This document shows positions 4,187 through 61,189 of a stretch of 64,000 bases of DNA, piece after piece. The translations under genes and the position numbers were made by a program. Within the stretch, counting starts at the first letter, position 1, and the number at the start of each line of letters is the position of its first letter. The stretch lies in the IMG/VR virus record IMGVR_UViG_3300042554_002914. One strand, 5' to 3'. This DNA is from a virus. Its lineage: Duplodnaviria; Heunggongvirae; Uroviricota; Caudoviricetes. Under the pieces are notes generated by a model, which was given only the letters and a program-made list of their open reading frames with translations, had not been told where the DNA came from and made no database searches.

Positions 4187-4257
4187 TAGGGTTATTAGTG
4201 TAGAATAGTGGGGGCTAGTATGGGCTAGTATGGGCTATTTAGACCAACCCCTCAGCA

Positions 4258-4893
4258 TCAAACATCGATGTCAACGTATTCTAATTCACCTAGGCTAATA
4301 ATCTCGACGCCGTTGTAAATTTTACGCGAAGACAGATGCCAATGGCCATGCACCCATAGGTCCGGCTTATGAATTTCAAGCATATTGTCGAAACACCTTC
4401 GGGTTACAGACGGGATATCATACTTATGTATTCCTTTTTCATGGCAAATACGGGTTATGACCGAATCCGGGCACTCATGGGTGACGACGATTTTTGGTTT
4501 TATCAACTCATAAGCATCCATTATATTGGACAATTCACCATAGGACAATTCCTCATCGTGCCACCAGTCGTAGTTTTCGGTCCGCCGATCTCTGTCAATG
4601 GAAAAAGCCCCGCCAACACAAAATATATCGTCGCGGCCAAAGGCAGACCCACCGTCTTTGATCCAGAAGGGGTGTCTCTTGCAAGCTCCGGGACTATCGT
4701 GGTTTCCACGAATGAAGAAGTGCTCCCCCTTGGCCATGTGGTCGTAGGGCGGGTTGCTATAGGGTTTGTTGGTACGAGGGTTGATGAATCCGACTCCAAA
4801 ATCCCCAACTTGCAAGGAACGGTTGCACCCTTTAATGATGTCCTGAAATTTACTCCATTTCGCGTGGACATCTCCAATGAATCTAATTTGCAT
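4258..4893 (-). CDS. Calcineurin-like metallophosphoesterase
   Basis: GDVH, GDFG, RGNHD, THE, HGHWH motifs. Confidence 0.9.
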   Translation of the reverse strand: MQIRFIGDVHAKWSKFQDIIKGCNRSLQVGDFGVGFINPRTNKPYSNPPYDHMAKGEHFFIRGNHDSPGACKRHPFWIKDGGSAFGRDDIFCVGGAFSIDRDRRTENYDWWHDEELSYGELSNIMDAYELIKPKIVVTHECPDSVITRICHEKGIHKYDIPSVTRRCFDNMLEIHKPDLWVHGHWHLSSRKIYNGVEIISLGELEYVDIDV

Positions 4894-10056: not shown

Positions 10057-10350
10057 TTAGAAATCGGGATCAAGTTCTGTTGCGATGTCCATGAGTTTAC
10101 TTCTCGTGGTATGACGCTGGAGACTTTGTGCTATTTCTGTCAGATTAAATTCGCCGGTAGCGTCATCATAAAAATCATTCGGTCTGGAATGCTCCCATAG
10201 GAGTTCCTGTTCTGTTAATACTCGGATAATAAACGCAACATGCCCACGGCATTCTTCACACGGCTTCACGCACGGGCCTGCAGACGCAGGGTATCGACGT
10301 TGGCATAGTGCATTTACCAGGTCTTGGGCGGTAGGGGATAGGTCAGCCAT
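10057..10350 (-). CDS. LSP..AQ/IAxEL paralogue family protein
   Basis: MADLSPTAQDLV...MDIATELD. Confidence 0.75.
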   Translation of the reverse strand: MADLSPTAQDLVNALCQRRYPASAGPCVKPCEECRGHVAFIIRVLTEQELLWEHSRPNDFYDDATGEFNLTEIAQSLQRHTTRSKLMDIATELDPDF

Positions 10351-15212: not shown

Positions 15213-16378
15213 TGTAGGGTGAATTTATAAATTTCTTTTTTGGAGAGCCTAATGATTTGATTGTTTAGGGTTTCCACTGAGGGGACGATCGTGGTGTCAT
15301 CCGATACCTTAATTCCGGACAAAACGACAGACCCGGCTCTGATTTTACGTCTGGCATCGCTAGTGCTTTTTACCAAGTTGAGTGTTTTAAGCAGGTTGGC
15401 TAGTGGTATGGGGAATGTAATGTCATTGAGAAGGGCGGTTGGCACGTTGCTGTCCGTAGGATCTGCCAGGCCAGAAAAGACGATGGACTCAGCACTCTGT
15501 TTGGCATCTAAGGCTTTGTCCATGCCGTGAAAGGTCGCTGTAACTTCGATTGCCATTTGCCGTTGCTTTTCACGGGGGTTGGTAGGGAAATCCCCCGGCT
15601 CGCAATCAGTAAGTAAAGTGATGAACTCATTGACGGCACTATCGGGAATTTTCTCCAGTTTGGAAAACATGTGGAGAGGGTGCTCGTTAATCCCGATGGT
15701 ATTCCCAAGGCTTTTTGACATCTTTTGGTGGCCGTCGGTACCCACAAGAATGGGCATTAGTAGCCCGATTTGTTGCACTTCCGAGCCAAGTCCTCTTTGG
15801 ATGGTTCGTCCGACACTGATGTTGAATTTCTGGTCAATGCCACCTAGTTCTACATCGGATTGGACAACAAAGCTATCGAAACCTTGCAACAACGGGTACA
15901 TGAATTCGTGTAGGCTAATTGGTGTTTCGTTTTTTAGACGGTTGGAAAAATCTTGCTTAGCCAGTAGCTGCTGCACAGTAATTAGAGACTGGAGCTTGAT
16001 GATGTCGTTGAGTTGTAGCGATGCTAAGTGGGTGGAATTAAATATGATTTCGCATTTTTCTATGTCAAGGAATTTTCCCATAGTATCCAGAAAGGACTGC
16101 CCATTGGCGCTCACTACATCAGGGTCAAGTTGCGGGCGAGTTGTGTTTTTACCGGTTGGATCTCCGATCCTGGCAGTGAAATCACCAATAATTACAACCG
16201 GAGTATGGCCATCTTGCTGGAAGGCACGGAGCTTTCTCAGAAGCACAGAATGCCCCAGGTGCAAAAAATCTGAAGTCGGATCGAATCCAAGCTTGATGCG
16301 TTTTGGTTGTGATAGGAATTGGTTTAGGTTGGTGGCAGGTAGTACATCAACGATGCTGCTTTGTATGGGTCTTATCAT
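15209..16378 (-). CDS. tyrS: Tyrosine--tRNA ligase
   Basis: GFDPTSDFLHLGH (HIGH), IGDPTGK, YPLLQGFD, ELGGIDQKFN, KMSKS, C-terminal S4 domain (STSDARRKI). Confidence 0.96.
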   Translation of the reverse strand: MIRPIQSSIVDVLPATNLNQFLSQPKRIKLGFDPTSDFLHLGHSVLLRKLRAFQQDGHTPVVIIGDFTARIGDPTGKNTTRPQLDPDVVSANGQSFLDTMGKFLDIEKCEIIFNSTHLASLQLNDIIKLQSLITVQQLLAKQDFSNRLKNETPISLHEFMYPLLQGFDSFVVQSDVELGGIDQKFNISVGRTIQRGLGSEVQQIGLLMPILVGTDGHQKMSKSLGNTIGINEHPLHMFSKLEKIPDSAVNEFITLLTDCEPGDFPTNPREKQRQMAIEVTATFHGMDKALDAKQSAESIVFSGLADPTDSNVPTALLNDITFPIPLANLLKTLNLVKSTSDARRKIRAGSVVLSGIKVSDDTTIVPSVETLNNQIIRLSKKEIYKFTLQ

Positions 16379-16457
16379 GTTCCTATTATAGGTTTACTTA
16401 GGGGGCAAGTAAAGGGCGGATAACCGAACGTGCCTTGACCCCGTGTTGTAAACAGTT

Positions 16458-38739: not shown

Positions 38740-38910
38740 GGTGAGGTTGCCGGTCGGTGAGTTGACTATCGGTGAGTTGACCATCGGGTGTGATGTTACA
38801 TAACTTAACATATCAGGGCAGGGAGTTTAACGGCAATGAGTTAACTATCGGGTGGCAAAGAGTTTACCACGAGAGTAGTACACTTGTACTAGCTTACCTG
38901 ACGGCAATAC
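38740..38910. repeat. Zone-1 operator block (HLR1-like 38795-38812; LexA-like 38877-38890)
   Basis: GTTACATA-AC-TTAACATA; TAGTACACTTGTACTA; GAGTT motifs. Confidence 0.8.
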
Positions 38911-38922
38911 CCGGTGGCTAAC

Positions 38923-39135
38923 TCACTTGGAGCGGCGGCGCCTCAGCTCATCACCGTAGGTGCAGGCCTCATCGCTATAGCGGCCCTCAGCAATCGGGTT
39001 CCAGCCACGCATGGCGGCCTCGGCCTGGCGACAATCTTTGGCCGCATAGGACAGCTCGGCATCGGTCATGCGGCTAGCTTTGGCGGCCCATGCGGTGAAA
39101 TCAGCGGCGGTGGCGGCGGTGGCGGCGGTGGCCAT
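38923..39135 (-). CDS. Cassette small protein (paralogue of 40155..40340)
   Basis: MATAATAATAADFTAW...ELRRRR; own TGCTACAAT promoter. Confidence 0.75.
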   Translation of the reverse strand: MATAATAATAADFTAWAAKASRMTDAELSYAAKDCRQAEAAMRGWNPIAEGRYSDEACTYGDELRRRRSK

Positions 39136-39260
39136 GGTGCGTTCCGGTGCGGTACTCTCATATTGTAGCACCCTGGCGTGGGGATTGTGGCTCCTGGTAC
39201 CTAGGCTCGGGAAATCGTTACGGTTCGTCACATTGCCGTAGATGCTGGAACCAAGAGGGA

Positions 39261-39281
39261 AGCCCCGGCGAACCGGGGCGG
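39261..39281 (-). terminator. Hairpin GCCCCGG-TTCG-CCGGGGC (recurs at ~40120 and ~46622)
   Basis: GC stem with UUCG loop followed by U residues on the minus strand, downstream of ORFs. Confidence 0.7.
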
Positions 39282-39303
39282 ATGGCAGGCTGCTAGAAGA
39301 TCC

Positions 39304-39561
39304 TCAGGTTGCAACGTAGGAGTAGGAGACGGCCACAATGCGGGGATCATGGTCCATCCAGAACCCTACGCGACCGTGGCTGTGGCCGGAAAGGTGGGTG
39401 ATGGACACGGCGCGGGCAGGGTGCATATCGCGGGTCTTGGTGTCGCTCACAACCTCGCGGCCGTCGGCGTAGCGGAGGGTCTCGGTCTGGATGTAGGGGG
39501 CGGTGCGGGCGGCCCAGTCGCCACGGAAGGGGGCAGAGTACATAGGGGGTGAGGCAACCAT
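39304..39561 (-). CDS. Cassette small protein
   Basis: Promoter module nearly identical to that of 38923..39135. Confidence 0.7.
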   Translation of the reverse strand: MVASPPMYSAPFRGDWAARTAPYIQTETLRYADGREVVSDTKTRDMHPARAVSITHLSGHSHGRVGFWMDHDPRIVAVSYSYVAT

Positions 39562-39700
39562 TTCGGCGCCCTTTGCTTGGAACCTACATATTGTAGCACC
39601 CTGGCGAGGGGATTGTGGCCCTTGGTTCCTGGACTCGGGAAATCGTTACGGTTCGTCACATTGCCACTGGAACCGGAACCAAGGGGAAAGCCCCCGGAAA

Positions 39701-39877
39701 TCACCAGCGGGCGGCCCAGACCTTAAGCTCAGCTAGGTTGTAAGTGGCCATGCAGCCAGCGAGGGTGCCATTCTCGACCCGGTGGACTCGATACTGACCG
39801 AACCGACGAGTAACCCTTACATCCGGGTGCTCCGCGAAAAAATCTAGGATTTGATTGCTGGTGTTCAGGGTGGCCAT
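39701..39877 (-). CDS. Cassette small protein (58 aa)
   Basis: Manual translation MATLNTSNQILDFFAEHPDV...WAARW; promoter at ~39905. Confidence 0.7.
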   Translation of the reverse strand: MATLNTSNQILDFFAEHPDVRVTRRFGQYRVHRVENGTLAGCMATYNLAELKVWAARW

Positions 39878-39949
39878 TTGCCGTTTGGTTGGTTGGCTTC
39901 GTAATTATAGCATGGTTGCCAGGGGTGCCGACGGGTCTGTGAACATTCG

Positions 39950-40095
39950 GTAAGTTTGCGCTTCGGGTGCGATGTTACAAAACTTAACACATCAAGGCAG
40001 GGAGTTTAACGGCAAGGAGTTTACCACGAGAGTAATACACTTGTACCAGCTTTCCTGATGGCAATACCCGGTGGCAATACCCGACGCCAATGAGT
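39950..40095. repeat. Zone-1 operator block (HLR1-like 39974; LexA-like 40034)
   Basis: GTTACAAAACTTAACACA; AATACACTTGTACC. Confidence 0.8.
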
Positions 40096-40154
40096 TAGGC
40101 TCCGAGCGCCATACCCATGAAAAAACCCCGGCGAACCGGGGCAGGGCCAGATGC

Positions 40155-40340
40155 TCAGCGGCGGTAGCAAAGTTCCCGGTGGAGTGCATTGGACTTTGCG
40201 ACGCAGCCCCCAAGGCTCTCGGGGCGGATCCTGGCCACGAAGCCAAGGCGACGGATGGCCCGGTGGATTTCAGGGTCCGTCATCAGGGTGGCCTCTTTCT
40301 GCCAAGCGGTGAGATCAGCGATGGTAGCGACGGCGGGCAT
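40155..40340 (-). CDS. Cassette small protein
   Basis: ADLTAWQKEATLMTDPEI...ELCYRR. Confidence 0.7.
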   Translation of the reverse strand: MPAVATIADLTAWQKEATLMTDPEIHRAIRRLGFVARIRPESLGGCVAKSNALHRELCYRR

Positions 40341-40429
40341 GGTGCGTTCCGGTGCGGTACTTACATATTATATGCCAGGGATGGATGGGTGTCAAGGCGC
40401 CGGGCGGTTTTGTTTGCGCCCTGTAACAA

Positions 40430-40680
40430 TGCCGGTCGGTGAGTTTACGCTTCGGGTGTCGCGCTTCGGGTGTCGCGCTTCGGGTGTCGCGCTTCGGGTG
40501 AGTTGGCTACCGGGTGCAATGTTACAAAACTTTACATTCCGGTGGTAGCTTCGAGGCAATGAGTTAGCTACCCAGTGGCAACAAAAAACTTAACATTCCG
40601 ATGCCAATGAGTTCGACCGCAATGAGTTTACCACGGGAGTAATACACTTGTACTAACTCACCTAGTGGCAATACCCACGA
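40430..40680. repeat. Zone-1 operator block (exact HLR1 40521-40538; LexA-like 40641) plus 14-mer tandem repeat
   Basis: GTTACAAA-AC-TTTACATT; tandem cgcttcgggtgtcg units. Confidence 0.85.
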
Positions 40681-40729
40681 CAAAAAGCCCCGGCAAGGCC
40701 AGGGCAAGGTGGGAATTGGGCCGGAATCC

Positions 40730-40972
40730 TTAGGTGAGGGTCTCGATAGACTGGCTCAGCATGCCCATCAGCAGACGCAGGGTCTCAAGGGTTTCAGGGG
40801 CGGGGCGGAAGATGGCTTCGCCATCGGGGCGGTACACTTCCCCCAGGGACTCGATTAGGTTGGCTAGGGCGATGCCCTCGGTGACGGCCTTGTTCATAAT
40901 CCGGTCTACCTCAGCGGCGACGGGTGTGGCGGCAGTGGTTGCCGTGAATGTGATGCCGGTTGCGGTTGCCAT
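40730..40972 (-). CDS. Cassette small protein
   Basis: MATATGITFTATT; own promoter. Confidence 0.75.
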   Translation of the reverse strand: MATATGITFTATTAATPVAAEVDRIMNKAVTEGIALANLIESLGEVYRPDGEAIFRPAPETLETLRLLMGMLSQSIETLT

Positions 40973-41088
40973 TGGTGCGGTGTCGGTTGGTGACTCTGTA
41001 ATTGTAGCACACTGCCGGTGGTGCCGTGGGTTCTGTTACGCTTAGTGGCGGCAGTCAAGGAACCAGGGGGCGCAAGCCCCCCCACAAG

Positions 41089-41268
41089 TTAGAAGCGGAT
41101 GATGGGGTGATCAGGGTCGAGGGTATCACATTCTTCAGTTGTGAAAACCAACTCAACTTTCTGGCCAAAATACTCATCAATTCCCTCGTCATAAACTGTA
41201 ACGTTAGAGTCCAGTTGTTCATCGGTGAATTGTTGCAGTTGCTGAAGCAGTTCCCGGTAGGTAATCAT
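41089..41268 (-). CDS. Cassette small acidic protein
   Basis: MITYRELLQQLQQFTDEQLDSNVTVYDE...LDPDHP. Confidence 0.75.
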   Translation of the reverse strand: MITYRELLQQLQQFTDEQLDSNVTVYDEGIDEYFGQKVELVFTTEECDTLDPDHPIIRF

Positions 41269-41345
41269 TGCGGTGTCGGTGAGTGACTCTGTAATTGTAG
41301 CATACGGCAGGCAGGGGGCGCAAGCCCCCTTAACCCTTGGATCAT

Positions 41346-41507
41346 TCATTCCCAGGTGGCACTAGCGACCCAGCCAGGGATCCCCCGGTCGGCAAAGCCG
41401 GAATTCATCCGCTCTGCTTCGGCGATGGCGAGGTCCTTGTCGTGCGTTTCGTAGGCAATCTCGCGACCGGTTTCAGTGCAGAGGATGACGCGGTAGGTGC
41501 GGGCCAT
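41346..41507 (-). CDS. Cassette small protein (53 aa)
   Basis: Manual translation MARTYRVILCTETGREIAYE... Confidence 0.7.
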   Translation of the reverse strand: MARTYRVILCTETGREIAYETHDKDLAIAEAERMNSGFADRGIPGWVASATWE

Positions 41508-41720
41508 TGTTGCCGGTGGGTGTGTTACCTCGTAATTATAGCATAGATGGGCAGGGTGCCGTTGGTTTGCCGTTGGTTTTGTTTACGTTCGGTAACAATG
41601 CCGTTGGGGGTTAGCCGCCAGGAGTAATACACTTGTACTAGCTCACCCGGTGAGTTTACGCTTCGTGACGACAGGCACGGCAAGGGGCCCCGGCAGGCAA
41701 GCCCCCCCCCCTAGGCACCC

Positions 41721-41855
41721 TCAGGCCTCGCCAACGACAATCCAGCCCTTGGGTTTCCGGCTAAGGGGGCCTGTGTAAACGACTTGCTCAAGGTACCCTT
41801 CGCGGTTGGTGCGCTCAAGCAGCCACTGGCTGGAGGTGGTGGTTTTGGTGGCCAT
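41721..41855 (-). CDS. Cassette small protein (44 aa)
   Basis: MATKTTTSSQWLLERTNREGYLEQVVYTGP... Confidence 0.65.
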   Translation of the reverse strand: MATKTTTSSQWLLERTNREGYLEQVVYTGPLSRKPKGWIVVGEA

Positions 41856-41928
41856 TGCGGTTCGGTGGGTGACTCCCGGTTAGTGACTCTGAGATTATAG
41901 CACGGATAGGCAGGGGGCGCAAGCCCCC

Positions 41929-42141
41929 TCAGGCAGGCATCGTGAAGTATGTTTCCTCTTCATCCCATCCTTGCTGGATAAGTTCTTTGATACCCTGTTC
42001 CCCATCTTCCTCGGAAGGGTGCAGCCAATTCAGCTCCCAGCTCCCATCGTAGCCAACCCGGAAAGTGGCACAGACGGTACCGGGTAGGAGGTGATAGGGG
42101 TGGCCCAGGGGGCAGTAGCAGATGGAAGGGGTGGTTGCCAT
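41929..42141 (-). CDS. Cassette small protein
   Basis: MATTPSICYCPLG; own promoter. Confidence 0.7.
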   Translation of the reverse strand: MATTPSICYCPLGHPYHLLPGTVCATFRVGYDGSWELNWLHPSEEDGEQGIKELIQQGWDEEETYFTMPA

Positions 42142-42229
42142 GGTGCGTTGCGGTGTCGGTTGGTGACTCTGTAATTGTAGCACACGGCAGGCAGGGGGGA
42201 TCAATGCGGTGTCAACCCCCTCGGCACCC

Positions 42230-42676
42230 TCAGCCAGCAACCACAGCACCCTTGGCAGTCTTACGGGGTGCACGCTTGCGGGCAGGGGCCGGTGCATCGG
42301 CGGTCGCAGTGGCCTTGGTTGCCTTAGTCGTCTTAGTCGTCTTGGTCCGGCTCTTACGGACAGGGGCAGCAGCCAGCAGGGCGATAGGGCCACTTGCGGC
42401 CATCAGGACGGGAACCTCAGCAGGCACGACGATTTCCTGGAATTCGATAGCGATGCCATCGATGGCTTCAACCGTGGCCCTAGCCAGGGCAGCCAACTGA
42501 TCGTTGCGGGCATCTATTGCCTCGCGGGTTTGACAACCCAGATCATAGGCAGTGTCTGCCGTGATGGTGGCGATGGTGATGATCAGGGCCAGGATGGTAC
42601 CGGCAATGCGGGCAGCCTTCTCAAGGGTGGGGGCCCAATCGGCTTTCAGGATGGTTGCGATGGTGGTGGTGGCCAT
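42230..42676 (-). CDS. Cassette protein with hydrophobic segment and Lys/Thr/Ala-rich tail
   Basis: RKSRTKTTKTTKATKATAT...RKRAPRKTAK. Confidence 0.75.
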   Translation of the reverse strand: MATTTIATILKADWAPTLEKAARIAGTILALIITIATITADTAYDLGCQTREAIDARNDQLAALARATVEAIDGIAIEFQEIVVPAEVPVLMAASGPIALLAAAPVRKSRTKTTKTTKATKATATADAPAPARKRAPRKTAKGAVVAG

Positions 42677-42769
42677 GGTGCGTTTCGCTTGGGACCCCCA
42701 TATTGTATGGGATGGGTGGCCAGGTGTCAAGCCGCTGGCGGTTTTGTTTGCATTCCGTAATAATGCCAT

Positions 42770-43110
42770 TGGGAGTTAGCCGCTAGGAGAAATACACTTG
42801 TACTAGCTTGCCCGATGTTGCTCTCCGATGTTGCTCTCCGGTGAGTTGACTATCGGTGAGTTGACTATCGGGTGTGATGTTACAAAACTTTACATATCAG
42901 GGCAGGGGGTTTGACCGTAATGAGTTAGCCACTCGGTGTCAACACAAAACTTAACATTGCGGTGAGTTTACCATCAAGTGGCAATACAAAACTTAACACA
43001 TCAAGGCAGGGAGTTTGACGGCAATGGGTTAGCTATCCGGTGTCAACACAAAACTTAACATTCCGGTAGCAATTTGACGGCAATGAGTTAGCTATTGGGT
43101 GTCAACATTG
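42770..43110. repeat. Zone-1 operator block (LexA-like 42791; exact HLR1 42879-42896 plus three degenerate copies)
   Basis: ACAAAACTT(A/T)ACA x4 with GGCAATGAGTTAGC units. Confidence 0.85.
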
Positions 43111-43180
43111 CCAGGGAGCACGATAAGCCGACATAAAGAAAGGCCGCCGATTGGCAGCCCTTTACTATGCGGACTTTCGT

Positions 43181-43570
43181 TCACAAAGGGTTGAAATTAT
43201 CATCCACATCGTCCATCATTTCAAAGGTAGGGCAATGTAGCAGATTGCCCCTTGCAGCATACCCGTCGATGACATATTGTGCGTATTGCTTAATGTTTTG
43301 AACAGCATCTTTGCTGTCTACTGTATCCACGAACTTGCCCATGTTATAGTATGAAATCTGATCACCATTGTGGAAGTGATAAACCCTCTTTAGAATGAGA
43401 CGCATCTCACTCACAAAGAACCCCATATCGACTTGACATTCGTCCCCTACCCCAAAGGATACGGGAAATGTATACAAACCGTTAGGGTGCGGATTAGCCC
43501 AAGGGCTGGAATTCTCCCACTGTAGGGTAACTGAAGTCGTCCCACGAGAAATGATCGAGGGGGTGGGCAT
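43181..43570 (-). CDS. Cassette hypothetical protein
   Basis: 129 aa; own promoter. Confidence 0.75.
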   Translation of the reverse strand: MPTPSIISRGTTSVTLQWENSSPWANPHPNGLYTFPVSFGVGDECQVDMGFFVSEMRLILKRVYHFHNGDQISYYNMGKFVDTVDSKDAVQNIKQYAQYVIDGYAARGNLLHCPTFEMMDDVDDNFNPL

Positions 43571-43760
43571 GGTGCGTTCCGGTTGACTCTGTAATTATAG
43601 CATGGGGCGGGAGCCTGCTGTGGGGTGCCGGTGGTTGCCGGTGGTTTTATTTACGTTTGGTAACAATGCCGGTGGCAAGGAGTTTGACAGCAGGGGGGTT
43701 ATTGTACCAACAGAAAGGGCCACCTTTCGGTGACCCTGCCCTTGGTTATTCTACCAAGAG

Positions 43761-43958
43761 TCAACAATCGTAGAATTTATATACTCTGGCCCCCTCTTCT
43801 CTAAAGGAGACATCTTCCGGGAAATGCTTCAACCGGTATTTAGAAAGGCTGCAGATATTCACCATTAGGATGTGACTGATGCAGATTTTTTGCAATGTGT
43901 CGAAACACTCTGGCTTCGATAGAATGCTGTGGTGGTCGATGACGAGGCAGGCAGACAT
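43761..43958 (-). CDS. Cassette small protein
   Basis: 65 aa; own promoter. Confidence 0.6.
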   Translation of the reverse strand: MSACLVIDHHSILSKPECFDTLQKICISHILMVNICSLSKYRLKHFPEDVSFREEGARVYKFYDC

Positions 43959-44039
43959 TACGGTTTGGTGCGGTTGACCCTGTAATTATAGCATGGAGCC
44001 AAGGGTACTGTGTGGTGCCGTTGGTTTTGTTTACGTTTG

Positions 44040-44250
44040 GTTGCCATTGGAGGTTAGCCGCCAGGAGTAATACACTTGTACTAGCTTGCCTAGTGAGTTT
44101 ACGCTCCGGGTGAGTTGTAACAAAACTTTACACACCAGGGCAATGAGTTAGCTCTCCGGTGTCAACACAAAACTTTACACACCGGGGCAATGAGTTTGAC
44201 GGCAAGGAGTAGTACACTTGTACTAGCTCACCCGATGGCAATACCCAACT
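44040..44250. repeat. Zone-1 operator block (LexA-like 44069, exact 44211-44224; HLR1-like 44117 and ~44163)
   Basis: AGTACACTTGTACT; GTAACAAAACTTTACACA. Confidence 0.85.
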
Positions 44251-44296
44251 AGCAAAAAGCCCCAGAGAACCGGGGCGAGATGGAAAGGTCGCGGTA

Positions 44297-44605
44297 TCAT
44301 GCGCAGCGGTAGAGCCAGCCAGTCGTCGGCTGAACCGGGCTAGGATCGGCCAAAATTGAAGCCAGCCATGCCCGAACACCTTTAGCGGGGGCTTTCCAGC
44401 TATCGGCTTTCAAGATGGCCCCGTCTGTCAGGCGTATAAAGCAGTAGACCGAACGCTGAGACTCGCAGGGAACACCACTGTGGATAGGCACCATTGATAC
44501 CTTGGCATTGCTGCGGCCCATTTGGTAGGCGTAGGCGTAGGCGCCAGCGCTCTTACTGGTCAAAATGGCGATAAAGGCATCGATCTGGGATGTGGTGGTG
44601 GCCAT
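44297..44605 (-). CDS. Cassette phage protein
   Basis: SVYCFI...GAILKADSWKAPAKGVR, a recurrent motif in myophage early proteins. Confidence 0.75.
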   Translation of the reverse strand: MATTTSQIDAFIAILTSKSAGAYAYAYQMGRSNAKVSMVPIHSGVPCESQRSVYCFIRLTDGAILKADSWKAPAKGVRAWLASILADPSPVQPTTGWLYRCA

Positions 44606-44672
44606 GGTGCGTTGCGGTGTCGGTTGGGGACTCTGTAATTGTACCATACGGCAGGCAGGGGACGCAAGCCCC

Positions 44673-44849
44673 CTAACCCCGTGGCGCTCTGGCAGCTTCG
44701 ACGTGGAGCCCCCGAGCGATCTCTTTAAGTTCGGATTCAGAGCGGAAAACCAGCATGAGCCAGAATTCTCCGGTGACCTCAAGATTGTTGGCCCTGATGA
44801 CGTTCATGATGTCGTGGCGGAGGTCTTGCTTGCGCTGGGTGGCGGTCAT
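44673..44849 (-). CDS. Cassette small protein (58 aa)
   Basis: Manual translation MTATQRKQDLRHDIMNVIRAN... Confidence 0.7.
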   Translation of the reverse strand: MTATQRKQDLRHDIMNVIRANNLEVTGEFWLMLVFRSESELKEIARGLHVEAARAPRG

Positions 44850-44904
44850 TGCTGGTGGTGTCGGTTGGGGACCTCGTAATTATAGCACGGGGCGGGCCAT
44901 GCGG

Positions 44905-45084
44905 TCAGCCAAACTGCTTACGAAGTTCGATCAGTTCTGCAACTTTGACCTTAAGCATGGTTTTCGCCATACCATCTTTTTCGAAGACGCATAACTTGGT
45001 TTTTGAGTTGCCCCAAGTTGTTACGCGGATTCCAAAGGGCTTGAGGGCGGCATCGGCTTCGGCAGCGGTCAGTGTGGTGGTCAT
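44905..45084 (-). CDS. Cassette small protein
   Basis: MTTTLTAAEADAALKPFG. Confidence 0.7.
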   Translation of the reverse strand: MTTTLTAAEADAALKPFGIRVTTWGNSKTKLCVFEKDGMAKTMLKVKVAELIELRKQFG

Positions 45085-45154
45085 GGGTGACTCCCGGTTG
45101 GTGACTCTGTAATTGTACCATGGGGCCAACGGAATCGTCAACCCCTGGCAGCAA

Positions 45155-45499
45155 TCAGCCCATCCCCGCAACCCTAGCAAGCTCCTGCATGGTGCAAGGG
45201 GAAGAACCCATCAGAGGCAAAATCGCAACTTCCATATGCGAATGCAGATTCTGCCAGCGAATGGCATAGGCGGCGGCATCCTCGATGGACCAGCCTTCTA
45301 CGGGGCCACCCTGAAGGAACCAGCGGGGCTGATGGTCGGACGGGGATTTGGGCTTGACGCGAGCCCACAGACGGTATGTGGTTGCTGGGGCTGCGGGTTG
45401 CATCGGGGCGGCGGGTTGCATCGGGGCTGCGGGTTGCATCGGGGCTGCGGGTTGCATCGGGGCGGCGGGTTGCATCGGGGCGGTGGTTGCAATAGCCAT
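45155..45499 (-). CDS. Cassette protein with (PMQPAA)5 repeat
   Basis: 18-bp in-frame tandem repeat. Confidence 0.7.
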
Positions 45500-45652
45500 C
45501 GTTGCGGTGTCGGTTGGGGACCTCGTAATTATAGCATGGATGGGCCAGAGAACGCAATCCCTAACCCCTCGTGACGGCAGGCAAGGGGCCAACACAGTGT
45601 CAACCCCATGGTATTGTCAACCCCTCGGCATTGTCAACCCCCCCCGGCATCA

Positions 45653-45895
45653 TCAGCGCCATCCAGCGCACCAATCCCCTTTGACAGGCTCCACAACGCG
45701 GATTATCACCCACTGCCCGCATTCTTTGACATAGACACGGACCGGCTGTGAGACCTCTACGGCCCAATCCCGAGCCCTTTCCATGGCTTCGTCACAGGTG
45801 GCGAAAAATTCGGCCTCATCCTTGAATTCAAAGACGTCCGCTGGGGGTAGAACGGCGTAGGATGTCGGGTCAATGATGGTTGTTGCTGGGTCCAT
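45653..45895 (-). CDS. Cassette small protein (paralogue of 54617..54850)
   Basis: MDPATTII...[10 protein letters not shown]...A.DW...PV.VY. Confidence 0.75.
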
Positions 45896-45992
45896 TGTGG
45901 GCGCTCCGGGGTGGTTTCCCTTGGTTGGCTGGTGACAGGTTGATTATAGCATAGGGGCCGACGCATTGTCAACCCCATGGCACCGTCAACCC

Positions 45993-46232
45993 TCACGCAG
46001 CAGCCAAGGCATCCAGGGCGGTAGCCAGGGCAGTAGCAGGGAAATAGCGGTCCTCACCTTCGCAGATATCCGACAGGCACCAGCGGAAACCACGACGGGT
46101 CGCATCAGCGGTCAGGATGTAGTCGGCACCTTTGAAGAATGCTCGGGATCCTTCACTGAATTCCACTCCAGCAGGGAGGCCATTGCGGAGGGCAGCGTTG
46201 ATCATGGCGGAGGGGGTGGTTGCCGGGCCCAT
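45993..46232 (-). CDS. Cassette small protein
   Basis: MGPATTPSAMINAAL. Confidence 0.7.
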   Translation of the reverse strand: MGPATTPSAMINAALRNGLPAGVEFSEGSRAFFKGADYILTADATRRGFRWCLSDICEGEDRYFPATALATALDALAAA

Positions 46233-46329
46233 GTTGTCGTTTGGTGCGTTGCCTAGTAATTGTAGCATATGGCCGAGGGTGCTGGGTGGCCAAGGGGTTT
46301 GTTTACGTTTCGTCACAATGCCAGGTGGT

Positions 46330-46610
46330 TTGTTTGCGCTCCGGGTGTGATGTTACAAAACTTAACATTCCGGTGGCAGTTTGACGGAAATGAGTTAACT
46401 ATCGGGTGACAACACAAAACTTAACATTCCCATGGCAGTTTGACGGCGATGAGTTAGCTACCGGGTGACAACACAAAACTTAACATTCCGGTGGCAGTTT
46501 GACGGCAATGAGTTAACTATCGGGTGAGTTGTAATGAAACTTAACACACCATGGCAGGGAGTAATACAAAAGTACTAGCTTTCCTGACGGCAATACCCGG
46601 TGGCAATATC
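46330..46610. repeat. Zone-1 operator block: ~59-bp tandem unit x4 with HLR1-like site; LexA-like 46563
   Basis: ACAAAACTTAACATTCC..TGGCAGTTTGACGG..ATGAGTTA repeated. Confidence 0.85.
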
Positions 46611-46656
46611 CAAATAGCAAGAAGCCCCGGCGAACCGGGGCAGTATCGGGGGGGTG

Positions 46657-46869
46657 TCAGCCTACGCCTTGTCCCCAGACGGTTAAGCAGCGGTCTCGGG
46701 CGACCCGGTAGGAATCAAGCTCCCTGCGGTTGAGATCCAACATGGGGCGATAGCCGTTGATACCAGCCGCACATGCCGCTTTCCAAGCAGCCTCAGCACG
46801 GTCAATAGCGCATTGGGCGATATTAGCCCAAGCATCGGCGGAGATGGTTGCGGTGGTGGTGGGAGCCAT
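46657..46869 (-). CDS. Cassette small protein
   Basis: MAPTTTATISADAW. Confidence 0.7.
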   Translation of the reverse strand: MAPTTTATISADAWANIAQCAIDRAEAAWKAACAAGINGYRPMLDLNRRELDSYRVARDRCLTVWGQGVG

Positions 46870-46929
46870 TTGCCGTTTGGTGTGGTACCCTGAAATTATA
46901 GCACGGTGCAGGGGCAATTGCGGGGTGCC

Positions 46930-47140
46930 GTTTGATGACGTTCTGTAACAATGCCGTTTGAGTAGTAGGTTTGTACTAGCGGACTTCGGCGGCAATTTGC
47001 GGTTCGAACTATCGGGTGTGATGTTACAAAACTTAACACATCGGGGCAGGGAGTTTAACGGCAACGAGTTTACTATCTGGTGGCAACACCACGGCAAGGA
47101 GTAATACACTTGTGCTAGTGAGCCCAGTGGTAATACCCAG
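46930..47140. repeat. Zone-1 operator block (LexA-like 46964 and 47103; HLR1-like 47023)
   Basis: AGTAGGTTTGTACT; GTTACAAAACTTAACACA; AATACACTTGTGCT. Confidence 0.8.
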
Positions 47141-47148
47141 TGTCAAAA

Positions 47149-47221
47149 TGGGGGCCACGAGGATCGGACTCGTCTTCTATTTGTTATGAGCAAATTGCAT
47201 TCACCAGATTGCTAGACCCCC
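47149..47221 (-). tRNA. tRNA with CAT anticodon (elongator Met or Ile2)
   Basis: GGGGGTC/GGCCCCC acceptor stem, GCA/TGC D arm with TGG, ATTTG-CTCATAA-CAAAT anticodon arm, ACGAG-TCCGATC-CTCGT T arm; no encoded CCA; atypical C at position 55. Confidence 0.85.
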
Positions 47222-47250
47222 GTGTTTTCAGTTTGTCTTAGTTTGAGTTT

Positions 47251-47340
47251 TGTTGCGCTTCGTGATGGTTAGGCATGGCATGTTGCGCTTCGTGATGGTT
47301 AGGCATGGCATGTTGCGCTTCGTGATGATGGGCATGGCAA
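47251..47340. repeat. 30-bp tandem repeat x3 upstream of tRNA
   Basis: tgttgcgcttcgtgatggttaggcatggca. Confidence 0.85.
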
Positions 47341-47379
47341 GGGGCCGACGCAATGGCAACCCCTCGGCAACCCCGGCCA

Positions 47380-47673
47380 TCAATAACCCAACCAGACCAG
47401 GGCCTGGCCAGCGTGGTTAGGGTTGACTTCAGGGTGGGAATCAGCCTTAAGGTCCGCAACATTTGCCCAGTGGTCCCGCAGAAGCCGCCCAAGCTCGCGG
47501 TCAGTCAGGATCAGGGACTCGCTGCGATCCCAAGCTGCGGCCAGAACGCTAGCGGCATAATTTTCGGGATCTTGACCCAGTGCATAATCAAAGCAGTCGG
47601 CCCACTGCTCGTCGGTGAATGCAATTTGCTCGGCGCTGATGATGTGGCTGGTAGCGGTGGCGGCGGTGGTCAT
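47380..47673 (-). CDS. Cassette small protein
   Basis: MTTAATATSHII...ALVWLGY. Confidence 0.75.
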   Translation of the reverse strand: MTTAATATSHIISAEQIAFTDEQWADCFDYALGQDPENYAASVLAAAWDRSESLILTDRELGRLLRDHWANVADLKADSHPEVNPNHAGQALVWLGY

Positions 47674-47823
47674 TGCGGTCCGGGTAGTGACTCTGTAAGT
47701 GTAGCACACGGGGGCAGGGTGCCGTGGGTGCTGTTACAAGAGGTAACAACAGGCACGGCATGTTGCGCTTCGTGATGATGGGCATGGCAAGGGGCCCCGG
47801 CAGGCAAGCCCCCCCCCCCAGAC

Positions 47824-48039
47824 TCACAACTTACTGCGACGTTCTTCTCTTAATACCTCACAGGCATGTTCTGCCTTGCCAAGTGTACGGCCAACTGCCA
47901 CCAGTTCCGTATCACAAAACCAGCAGCAATACATAGGGACGCTATACCCGCAGTAGGTGTATGTGATTTTCCACCTTTCATCGTCTTTCAAGGGGTGCCA
48001 CGATTGGCCGACTGTGTGGTAGCGTTCTGCGGTGGCCAT
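47824..48039 (-). CDS. Cassette small protein
   Basis: MATAERYHTVG. Confidence 0.7.
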   Translation of the reverse strand: MATAERYHTVGQSWHPLKDDERWKITYTYCGYSVPMYCCWFCDTELVAVGRTLGKAEHACEVLREERRSKL

Positions 48040-48150
48040 TTGCGGTTTGGGTAGTGACTCCGTAATTGTAGCACACGGGGGTAGGGTGCCGTGGGTTCTG
48101 TTACGCTTCGTGATGATGGGCACGGCAAGGGGCCAACACAGTGGCAACCA

Positions 48151-48330
48151 TCACCCGATGCCTTCCCGGTCGTATTCCCCGTAAGTCGATTCATATACGG
48201 CACGGTCATCGTAGAATTCAGCCTCAGCATTAGGATCGCCGTCAGCCAGTGCTTGGAGGAATTTTAGGGTATCTTCGTCAGTGGGGGTAGCGGCGAAGGC
48301 GGCGGTAATGGTTGCTGATGTGGGGGCCAT
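48151..48330 (-). CDS. Cassette small acidic protein (59 aa)
   Basis: Manual translation MAPTSATITAAFAATPTDEDTLKFLQALADGDPNAEAEFYDDRAVYESTYGEYDREGIG. Confidence 0.65.
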   Translation of the reverse strand: MAPTSATITAAFAATPTDEDTLKFLQALADGDPNAEAEFYDDRAVYESTYGEYDREGIG

Positions 48331-48525
48331 TTTTTTCTCCGGGGTGTCTGTCTATTGTAGCATAGTGCTGGGGGGGGGTTGGGGTTTGCGGGTCGGTGTT
48401 GTGCTTCGGGTGTTAGGCTTCGGTAAGTTTGCGCTACGGTAAGTTGACTATCGGGTGCGATGTTACAAAACTTAACATTTCATTGGCATCGAGTTTGTGG
48501 TATGAGTTACTTAAATGTAATTATA

Positions 48526-59731: not shown

Positions 59732-60187
59732 TGCCTTGGGGTTAGGTAGACTGTGGGCGTGGTTGCCATTGGGGAGGTCCGGTGGGTTACGGCAGGGGAA
59801 TCATAGCATGGCCCTGGCAGGTTAGTTGGTGGCCCCGTAATTATAGCACAGGGGGGCCAGGCTACGGGTGCCGTTACATTCCGTAACAACAGGTACGGCA
59901 AGGAGTCACTGGATGGCAACCCCTGTAAAGAATTGGCCAGGTTGTGGGGCTATGCTTTCGCTCCTGAAGGGTAGCCAGGCGAAGAAGGGCAGCCCTGCGG
60001 CTGATAGTCCTACTTCCATTTCCCACTATTTGCCTTCACGTCTACCTGTATTTTGGGTTGTGACCCTATTGTAGCATGGGCCTGGCAGTGTCAACTCCCC
60101 ATAGCTTTAACCAAATGGCAAGCATGGGGCGGACGGGAACGCAACCCCTAGACTTTAATGGCTGGCAAGCATGGGGCCGAGGCAGAG

Positions 60188-60955: not shown

Positions 60956-61160
60956 TGGTGGCAAGATCCCCCGAGGGTCACCATATTATGGCATATTGCC
61001 GATGTTATTGCAACCCCTTGGCCCCGGTTTATACCTTGGCTTGTTCGCCCCCCGCCACGATGTGTTAAGTTTTGTAACGATCTGGGGGCAATTAAGTTTT
61101 GTAACGATTCGGAGTTTGTTACCCTGTGGCATCGACTCGGAGTTTGCCATCCCCAAGGCA

Positions 61161-61189
61161 TTGACAGCTGCCGGGGTCCACTCTATAAT
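61161..61189 (+). promoter_or_regulatory. Perfect sigma70 promoter on the plus strand, preceded by two inverted HLR1-like sites
   Basis: TTGACA-17-TATAAT; ttaagttttgtaac at ~61065 and ~61092. Confidence 0.8.

Follow-up and report, generated by a model that had tools for sequence, protein, structure and literature searches.

Why would a virus keep, between its small genes, repeated words that look like the binding sites of a host regulator? The question is raised by a 64,000-nucleotide stretch of a Caudoviricetes genome (IMG/VR record IMGVR_UViG_3300042554_002914; this whole stretch is called the window below), in which a preliminary description had pointed to words resembling HLR1, the site of the regulator RpaB, mainly between 38.7 and 48.5 kb. 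RpaB is an essential light and redox regulator and is highly conserved. HLR1 consists of two 8-nt direct repeats, (G/T)TTACA(T/A)(T/A), that are separated by a 2-nt gap and lie 10 bp apart; it is the element of the RpaB regulon in Synechocystis 6803 as well as S. elongatus, and it has been reported from cyanophage genomes too (PMC6525291). Our analysis leads us to suggest that the HLR1-like words are part of lineage-specific regulatory cassettes upstream of early genes and may be read by the RpaB of the host, a reading that we prefer while giving it somewhat less than an even chance of being correct.

HLR1-like words exceed chance expectation

The exact HLR1 pattern, KTTACAWWNNKTTACAWW, matched the window twice, at 40521 and 42879, against 0.00 matches expected (100 shuffles). 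The 16-mer GTTACAAAACTTTACA, with up to three mismatches allowed, gave 12 matches against 0.60 expected, including sites at 38795, 39974, 44117, 46352, 47023 and 48462 on the plus strand and at 61063 and 61090 on the minus strand. Every coordinate listed in the preliminary description was recovered in this way, 40521 and 42879 as exact sites and the others through the 16-mer. The two four-unit tandem blocks that it had reported are also real (42879–43062 and 46352–46548, with units 42 to 62 bp apart), as is the inverted pair at 61061–61105. When the 16-mer was scanned across viral contigs, it gave mostly isolated single matches, probably at chance level. An exact HLR1 in a complete related genome (G002, position 252074; see below) falls within an open reading frame (ORF) and is probably accidental.

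The conserved unit is a 13-bp core in two classes

The unit that is conserved proved to be a 13-bp core, ACAAAACTT(A/T)ACA, rather than HLR1 as such. We searched for this core, allowing one mismatch, in the window and in two close relatives, a 53.8-kb viral record (G001) and a complete viral record of 279,339 bp (G002); a further relative is represented by a piece of a 127-kb contig. The search gave 15 copies in the window, all at 38.7–48.5 kb, 16 in G001 and 21 in G002. All of these 52 copies lie on the strand opposite to the genes; one additional one-mismatch match on the gene strand of G002 was excluded from the count. In G002, all 18 exact cores lie on one strand within 129.9–138.6 kb, that is, within 8.7 kb of 279 kb.

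The copies fall into two classes. Class A, with 27 of the 52 copies, is HLR1-like and reads CGGGTGnGATGTTACAAAACTT(A/T)ACA; besides the two exact sites, six class A sites deviate from HLR1 by one or two mismatches. Class B, with the other 25 copies (seven of them in the window), reads TGAGTT..C....GGTGnCAACACAAAACTTAACA, and its first half-site has shrunk to ACA. The second half-site is TTAACA in 41 copies, TTTACA in nine and TTAATA in two. The spacer AAAAC and the 10-bp 5′ flank of class A, CGGGTGnGAT, are kept as well as the half-sites themselves, and the bases just 3′ of the core vary freely. The identification of the words as HLR1 held in part: class A matches the published consensus and is non-random, and the first half-site is missing from about every second copy.

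The preliminary description had added that the site could also be read as a dyad for another factor, and this caveat has grown into the main competing interpretation. With TTAACA as the second half-site, the core becomes a perfect dyad, TGTTA-N7-TAACA. GTTAC all but equals its own reverse complement, so that a single base separates the reading as a direct repeat from that as an inverted repeat. As far as the letters can tell, the HLR1-like words belong, as one variant, to a broader element for which a dyad is an equally good reading.

A promoter-proximal element lies at a fixed distance

The cassettes lie in a block that extends over about 38,000–63,000 and is built of small orphan ORFs on the minus strand, extended −10 boxes, consensus promoters and several terminators. 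Within it, the extended −10 box TGCTA(T/C)AAT occurs 47 times on the minus strand against once on the plus strand, and several complete TTGACA-N17-TATAAT promoters are present as well. The ORFs between these promoters encode 44–148 amino acids, nearly all without a family match, and several are followed at the 3′ side by a terminator of hairpin and T-run. Small ORFs with promoters and terminators of their own have the layout of an early, host-takeover region that would use the host polymerase.

According to published work, RpaB activates in low light from sites centered at −66 to −45 and represses from sites centered at −38 to +23, and the sites may be on either strand (PMC6525291). We predicted transcription starts as 7 nt past the −10 hexamer. 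On this scale the class A centers lie at −86, −109, −124, −144, −148, −170 and −193, with no common phase, and 38795 lies at about −377 by manual count, in line with the earlier remark that many copies are more than 75 bp from any promoter. Class A thus does not occupy the published RpaB positions, and positions of −49 to −63 are taken only by D8 and by an element at 59873.

D8, TTTTGTTT(A/G)C-N5-GTAA(C/T)AATGCC, is present in 20 copies across the window, G001 and G002; the copies in the window are at 40408, 41577, 42742, 43645, 46297 and 46930. Wherever the −10 search caught the adjacent promoter, the D8 center lies either 55.5–62.5 or 68.5–72.5 bp upstream of the predicted start. These two distance groups are about one helical turn apart, a pattern that would be typical of class I activator sites. 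A perfect palindrome of related sequence, GTTACATTCCGTAACA, is centered at about −49 of promoter 59845; the HLR1-like palindrome at this position, GTTACATTCCGTAACAAC (59873–59890, plus strand), scores 18.0 bits with the matrix described below. Both D8 and this palindrome can also be read as HLR1 with one mismatch in each half. The promoter-proximal, HLR1-like D8 and the LexA-like dyads treated below are newly described here as parts of the cassettes. Another perfect palindrome, GTTACAAGAGGTAACA, of the dyad type seen in class A and D8, occurs at 47733 in a repeated promoter-upstream segment (47733–47750 and 48101–48127; repeat family D15).

These symmetric elements bring up a competing interpretation, which we consider unlikely, though by no means far-fetched: a dimeric protein that recognizes a TGTTA(C)-N5-7-(G)TAACA dyad would have its operators in the cores, in D8 and in the palindromes at 47733 and 59873. 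The phage would encode this protein or bring it in the virion, or else it would be some other host factor, and it would switch the promoters on as delayed-early promoters or turn them off at a later stage; the near identity of GTTAC with its own reverse complement would then account for the likeness to HLR1. The 41 TTAACA cores with their perfect 5-bp arms fit this idea, as do the palindromes at 59873 and 47733, both of which are perfect GTTAC-N5-GTAAC, and the extension of the conserved block well past HLR1. The elements are, moreover, limited to one phage lineage and to one genome block, and two sigma-70-family genes in G002 (10147–10296 and 16227–16421, minus strand) suggest that the phage has a staged transcription program of its own. 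Class B, however, lacks the left arm and yet is equally conserved, and the center of D8 is 8 bp rather than 7 bp, with unequal arms. A binder encoded by the phage also failed to appear: no OmpR-, LexA- or XRE-type DNA-binding protein was detected in the complete relative, in which the Trans_reg_C (OmpR-type), LexA DNA-binding and HTH_3 domains were all absent above the cut-off, and none of the small genes of the block has a Pfam DNA-binding match. Finally, an activator made by the phage could not serve its very first promoters.

Class A sites resemble sites at hli promoters of likely hosts

The left part of the window encodes GyrA, TyrRS, thymidylate kinase, an ADP-ribosylglycohydrolase, an R2K ATP-grasp protein and a DUF1517 protein, and all the sizeable genes of the window are on the minus strand. 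Among 50,697 phage records, the best match of GyrA was Synechococcus phage S-CBWM1, with 51% identity, and one more window protein partially matched Synechococcus phage S-CRM01. The virus is most likely a giant uncultured lake cyanophage, and we infer a cyanobacterial host. A search for relatives returned only three contigs with arrays, all of one lineage, and the aligned blocks of the three phages are roughly 75–98% identical. The cassettes were found in no cultured phage.

For comparison with host sites, we used five picocyanobacterial genomes of 2.1–3.1 Mb (two Cyanobium and three Synechococcus), which were retrieved through a psbA pattern; the DUF1517 protein, tried as another route to host genomes, led to nothing. 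The exact HLR1 consensus was absent from all five. At up to two mismatches each genome had 4–15 matches, which is not above a reversed control pattern. The best of the host matches lie directly before hli genes, where the second half-site, GTTACAAT, doubles as the −10 box; TTTACAACCTGTTACAAT and TTCACATGCTGTTACAAT are examples. The first half-sites in the host, such as GAAACA, GCCACA and GTAACA, indicate that RpaB-type sites tolerate much variation.

We then built a weight matrix from the 12 best candidates in 27 hli upstream regions of the five genomes. Host sites scored 6.4–19.2 bits in leave-one-out scoring, compared with 13.9–19.6 bits for class A, mostly 8.6–10.4 bits for class B and 12.6–15.5 bits for D8. 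The matrix scan proposed in the preliminary description, carried out here with our own matrix, hence placed class A within the range of host sites. Among all 128,000 positions of the window, the top ranks went almost entirely to cores, D8 and related elements. Judged by their letters, the class A sites of the phage appear to be as good as real host sites.

An arrangement of a similar kind was seen in Synechococcus sp. UW140 (G007:C10:69080-69110), where TTTGCAAAACTTTGCAAACTTGCGTTACAAT, with three phased half-sites, precedes a weak hli-like match; its center, CAAAACTTT, is identical to the center of the phage core.

LexA-like dyads and the possibility of a decoy

The cassettes contain a second kind of host-type word. 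The cyanobacterial LexA box is a 14-bp pseudo-palindrome, AGTACWNWTGTACT or RGTACNNNDGTWCB (PMC3091678). With up to one mismatch, AGTACWNWTGTACT matched seven loci against 0.18 expected, and LexA-box-like dyads lie at 38877–38890, 40641–40654, 41626–41639, 42791–42804, 44069–44082, 44211–44224 and 46563–46576. The words present in the cassettes are AGTACACTTGTACT (two exact copies) and AATACACTTGTACT (four copies). On the plus strand the word reads GGAGTA(A/G)TACACTTGTACTAGCT; on the opposite strand it reads AGTACAAGTGTATT, which is similar to GGTACAAATGTATT, the box found at lexA genes of picocyanobacteria, although the phage word is longer and asymmetric, GGAGTAATACACTTGTACTAGCT. The placement differs as well, as the phage dyads do not overlap promoters: they lie roughly at least 100 bp upstream of predicted starts, some 40–45 bp past D8, or else adjoin the upstream gene's terminator. 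The presence of two independent host-type words within one cassette, together with the lack of a viral protein of either family, favors host regulators as the readers, although a viral protein of novel fold may play this part instead. Host RpaB is the only candidate with a known site that matches, and we propose it as the reader of the cores and D8.

The preliminary description had also raised the possibility of a decoy, in which the arrays would soak up RpaB as the phage genome replicates and thereby derepress hli and psbA. In the wider form considered here, it is mainly the distal arrays that would do so, perhaps joined by the LexA-like dyads, which would draw off LexA and so possibly derepress SOS genes too. 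A phage that itself lacks psbA and hli would thus use replicating DNA, with no need for a viral protein, and, if the arrays did titrate RpaB and LexA, this would amount to protein-free reprogramming of the host. We regard this as very improbable. Near-consensus sites, with up to two mismatches, number 8–10 in about 9–10 kb of phage DNA against 4–15 in a whole host-type genome, a density several hundred-fold that of the host. Other observations fit the idea as well: the HLR1 of host hli promoters covers the −10 box, a repressing position; psbA is absent from the complete relative and no hli gene was found there above the cut-off; neither the arrays nor the LexA-like dyads occupy the usual regulatory positions; and from relative to relative the unit number at a locus drifts, with the regional total staying at 15–21. 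Regulator-titrating loci are known elsewhere, as in datA of E. coli, which acts on DnaA, and in the iteron arrays of plasmids. Like these, the phage has strong sites that are grouped at a distance from promoters and could, with rising copy number, reduce the level of free regulator; the difference is that here a virus would act on a regulator of its host, and we know of no described case of this. The decoy depends, however, on a binding by RpaB that is itself hypothetical, half of the copies are weak sites, comparable arrays are missing from the nearest cultured cyanophage (S-CBWM1), and titration would peak late, when host transcription is perhaps already off. None of our computed results shows titration. 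As the sites are found only in cassettes tied to particular early promoters, beside a well-placed proximal element, regulation in cis fits them better than a decoy does.

Anatomy of the cassettes

Nine cassettes lie at 38.7–48.5 kb and serve about 9 of the 25 promoters there; at the remaining promoters, a terminator directly abuts the −10 box (repeat family D7). Along the direction of transcription, a cassette begins with the preceding gene's terminator and continues with a LexA-box-like word, one to four units, often a second LexA-like word, D8 and the promoter, which is either an extended −10 box or a full consensus promoter of the sigma-70 type; cassettes measure 100–380 bp. A unit of about 59 bp (spacings of 42–62 bp) holds one core and two repeats of the GAGTT type (GGCAGGGAGTTTGAC and GGCAATGAGTTAGCTATCC are examples), and the unit nearest to the promoter is of class A.

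All coordinates of the cassettes are given on the plus strand. Cassette 1 (38743–38920) has GAGTT-type repeats, a class A core at 38795–38812 and the LexA-box-like dyad AGTACACTTGTACT at 38877–38890. Cassette 2 (39949–40075) has a class A core at 39974–39991, at about −86 of promoter 39909, and a LexA-like element at 40032–40049. Cassette 3 (40398–40682) combines D8 (40408–40433), four GCTTCGGGTGTCGC repeats, the exact HLR1 at 40521–40538, a class B-like core at 40580–40597 and the LexA-like dyad at 40641–40654; it is flanked by a TTGACA-N17-TATAAT promoter (40395–40367, minus strand) beside D8 and by the terminator of the upstream gene (40705–40687). Cassette 4 (41567–41660) is coreless and consists of D8 (41577–41602), centered at about −62 of promoter 41540, and the LexA-like dyad at 41626–41639. 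In cassette 5 (42732–43110), D8 (42742–42767, at about −61) and the LexA-like dyad at 42791–42804 are followed by the exact HLR1 at 42879–42896 and by cores at 42941, 42983 and 43045. A solitary D8 (43645–43670, plus strand) is centered at about −72 of promoter 43599.

Cassette 6 (44015–44252) contains a D8-like element (44030–44047, at about −61), the LexA-like dyad at 44069–44082, the class A variant GTAACAAAACTTTACA (44117–44134), a class B core (44164–44181) and an exact match to the LexA box (44211–44224). Cassette 7 (46287–46610) contains D8 (46297–46322, at about −59), a class A core at 46352–46369, class B cores at 46411 and 46470 (59 bp apart), a degenerate unit at 46531 and a LexA-like variant at 46563–46576, and the terminator is at 46641–46624. 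Cassette 8 (46920–47140), which adjoins a tRNA-Met gene (47149–47221, minus strand), has a D8 variant (46930–46955, at about −55), a class A core at 47023–47040 (about −144) and a LexA-like variant at 47101–47118. Cassette 9 (48400–48480) has GAGTT-type repeats and a class A core at 48462–48479, centered at about −124 of promoter 48359. Apart from these, the two inverted cores (61061–61105, minus strand) lie between divergent consensus promoters, one on the plus strand (61161–61189) and two on the minus strand (60951 and 60886); no ORF lies downstream of the plus-strand promoter. Elsewhere in the block, an 18-bp tandem repeat, GGGGCTGCGGGTTGCATC, in about six copies (45369–45504) lies within the small ORF 45155–45499 and would encode a repeated hexapeptide.

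The variable composition of the cassettes has a further possible explanation, namely that they are recombination substrates that shuffle small early genes, and that their motifs are kept alike by concerted evolution with no binding protein involved. The alignments of the three phages do tend to break at cassettes, some cassettes have different neighbor genes in each phage, the number of units per locus varies from one to four, and the order of cassette parts is mosaic. Under this explanation, though, it would be hard to see why the core is nearly invariant while adjacent positions of the cassette vary freely, why D8 keeps a fixed and phased distance from the promoter, and why two independent consensus words of host type are matched more closely than chance would allow. 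We therefore consider it improbable as an account of the motifs.

Several other identities were tried and rejected. A structured RNA or a known RNA family is disfavored by folding z-scores of the cassettes (0.25 and −0.82), which indicate no structure, and by the lack of an Rfam match. The core could be read as a promoter, either as an extended −10 element on the gene strand (TGTTAAGTT) or as TTGACT-N17-AAAACT on the other strand, but the −10 hexamers are poor and the spacing to neighbors differs between classes A and B; restriction of the core to 3% of the complete genome also argues against a general middle or late promoter. Sites for NtcA or a CRP-type regulator and Pho boxes were discarded on inspection of the sequence, which does not follow their rules for spacing or repeats. 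Iterons of a replication origin were set aside as well, as the unit spacings of 42, 47, 59 and 62 bp have no helical phasing and the sites are spread over nine loci.

Similar arrays in other viral contigs

Some lake viral contigs that seem unrelated to the window pair the same types of motif. In L321 (10189–10320), and also in L325, L306 and L269 (GC 0.45–0.51), four 10-bp-phased half-sites, GTTACAttttTTAACAtttcGTAACAtttcTTAACA, are followed by a perfect LexA-type box, TAGTACATTTGTACTA, and then by 4–9 more half-sites. The word TTTACAaactGTTACAat occurs about 9 nt upstream of TTGACA-N17-TATAAT promoters at L297:271, L279:3403 and 3491, L259:348/685/954, and L285:1098 and 4234–4294, an arrangement that places an HLR1-type box at about −55; as L297 carries a T5-like terminase, its host need not be a cyanobacterium. 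Tandem arrays with a 10-bp period were seen in L311 (10101–10190, minus strand; nine copies of GTTACAaact) and in L320 (9760–9846; eight copies of GTTACAttcg).

Discussion

The reading by host RpaB has to be weighed against a number of our own observations. With the RpaB regulon, the phage elements share the direct repeats, two of them exact and six nearly so, and the position of D8 near the published activating window. They differ in the TTAACA majority, which turns the core into a perfect dyad, in the loss of the first repeat from the half of the copies that make up class B, in the invariant spacer and flanks, whose conservation the definition of HLR1 does not predict, and in the distal arrays, which at −86 to about −377 and without phase fall outside both published windows. 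At the third base of the second repeat, 43 of the 52 phage copies have A and 11 of the 12 host sites have T. The matrix is small, with 12 sites that were selected by their likeness to the consensus; the start sites are predictions, and so is the cyanobacterial host; and S-CBWM1, the closest relative in culture, lacks HLR1-like sites even when up to two mismatches are allowed. These points keep our preference for RpaB as the reader tentative.

If host RpaB does read the cassettes, the cores and D8 would be sites of one winged-helix, OmpR-type regulator. D8 would serve as the weaker but correctly placed activating site, and the distal arrays would be high-affinity sites that keep the regulator near the promoter, either through looping or as a local reservoir. 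Early transcription would thereby track the light and redox state of the host. What the analysis demonstrates is the words themselves, how well they are kept, where they lie and how closely they fit host-type sites; binding by RpaB, or by any protein, and the direction of its effect are what we infer from sequence.

Two known phage systems invite comparison. The stoperators of mycobacteriophage L5 are asymmetric intergenic repressor sites of about 13 bp with one orientation relative to transcription. The phage elements resemble them in having a short asymmetric core and many dispersed copies on one strand, in the short gaps between genes and at a distance from promoters. L5, however, is temperate and has its own repressor, whereas the present phage looks lytic, has tandem arrays and places its copies after terminators, where, unlike at L5 stoperators, there should be little transcription that needs a stop; a search of the complete relative revealed no recognizable DNA-binding domain of a repressor type. 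The promoter-early/stem-loop (PeSL) elements are mobile regulatory cassettes of T4-type phages. The likeness to these is closer, since tiny early genes with their own promoter and terminator and repeated modules that act as recombination junctions are found in the present phage as well. Its cassettes are much larger, at 100–380 bp, and contain arrays of words like those of host regulators, which to our knowledge have not been described for PeSLs.

The ways in which cyanophages time their first genes and sense host state are poorly understood. The fixed position of D8 offers a concrete promoter design in this respect. If RpaB reads the cassettes, a giant phage would couple its takeover genes to the light status of its host through DNA alone.

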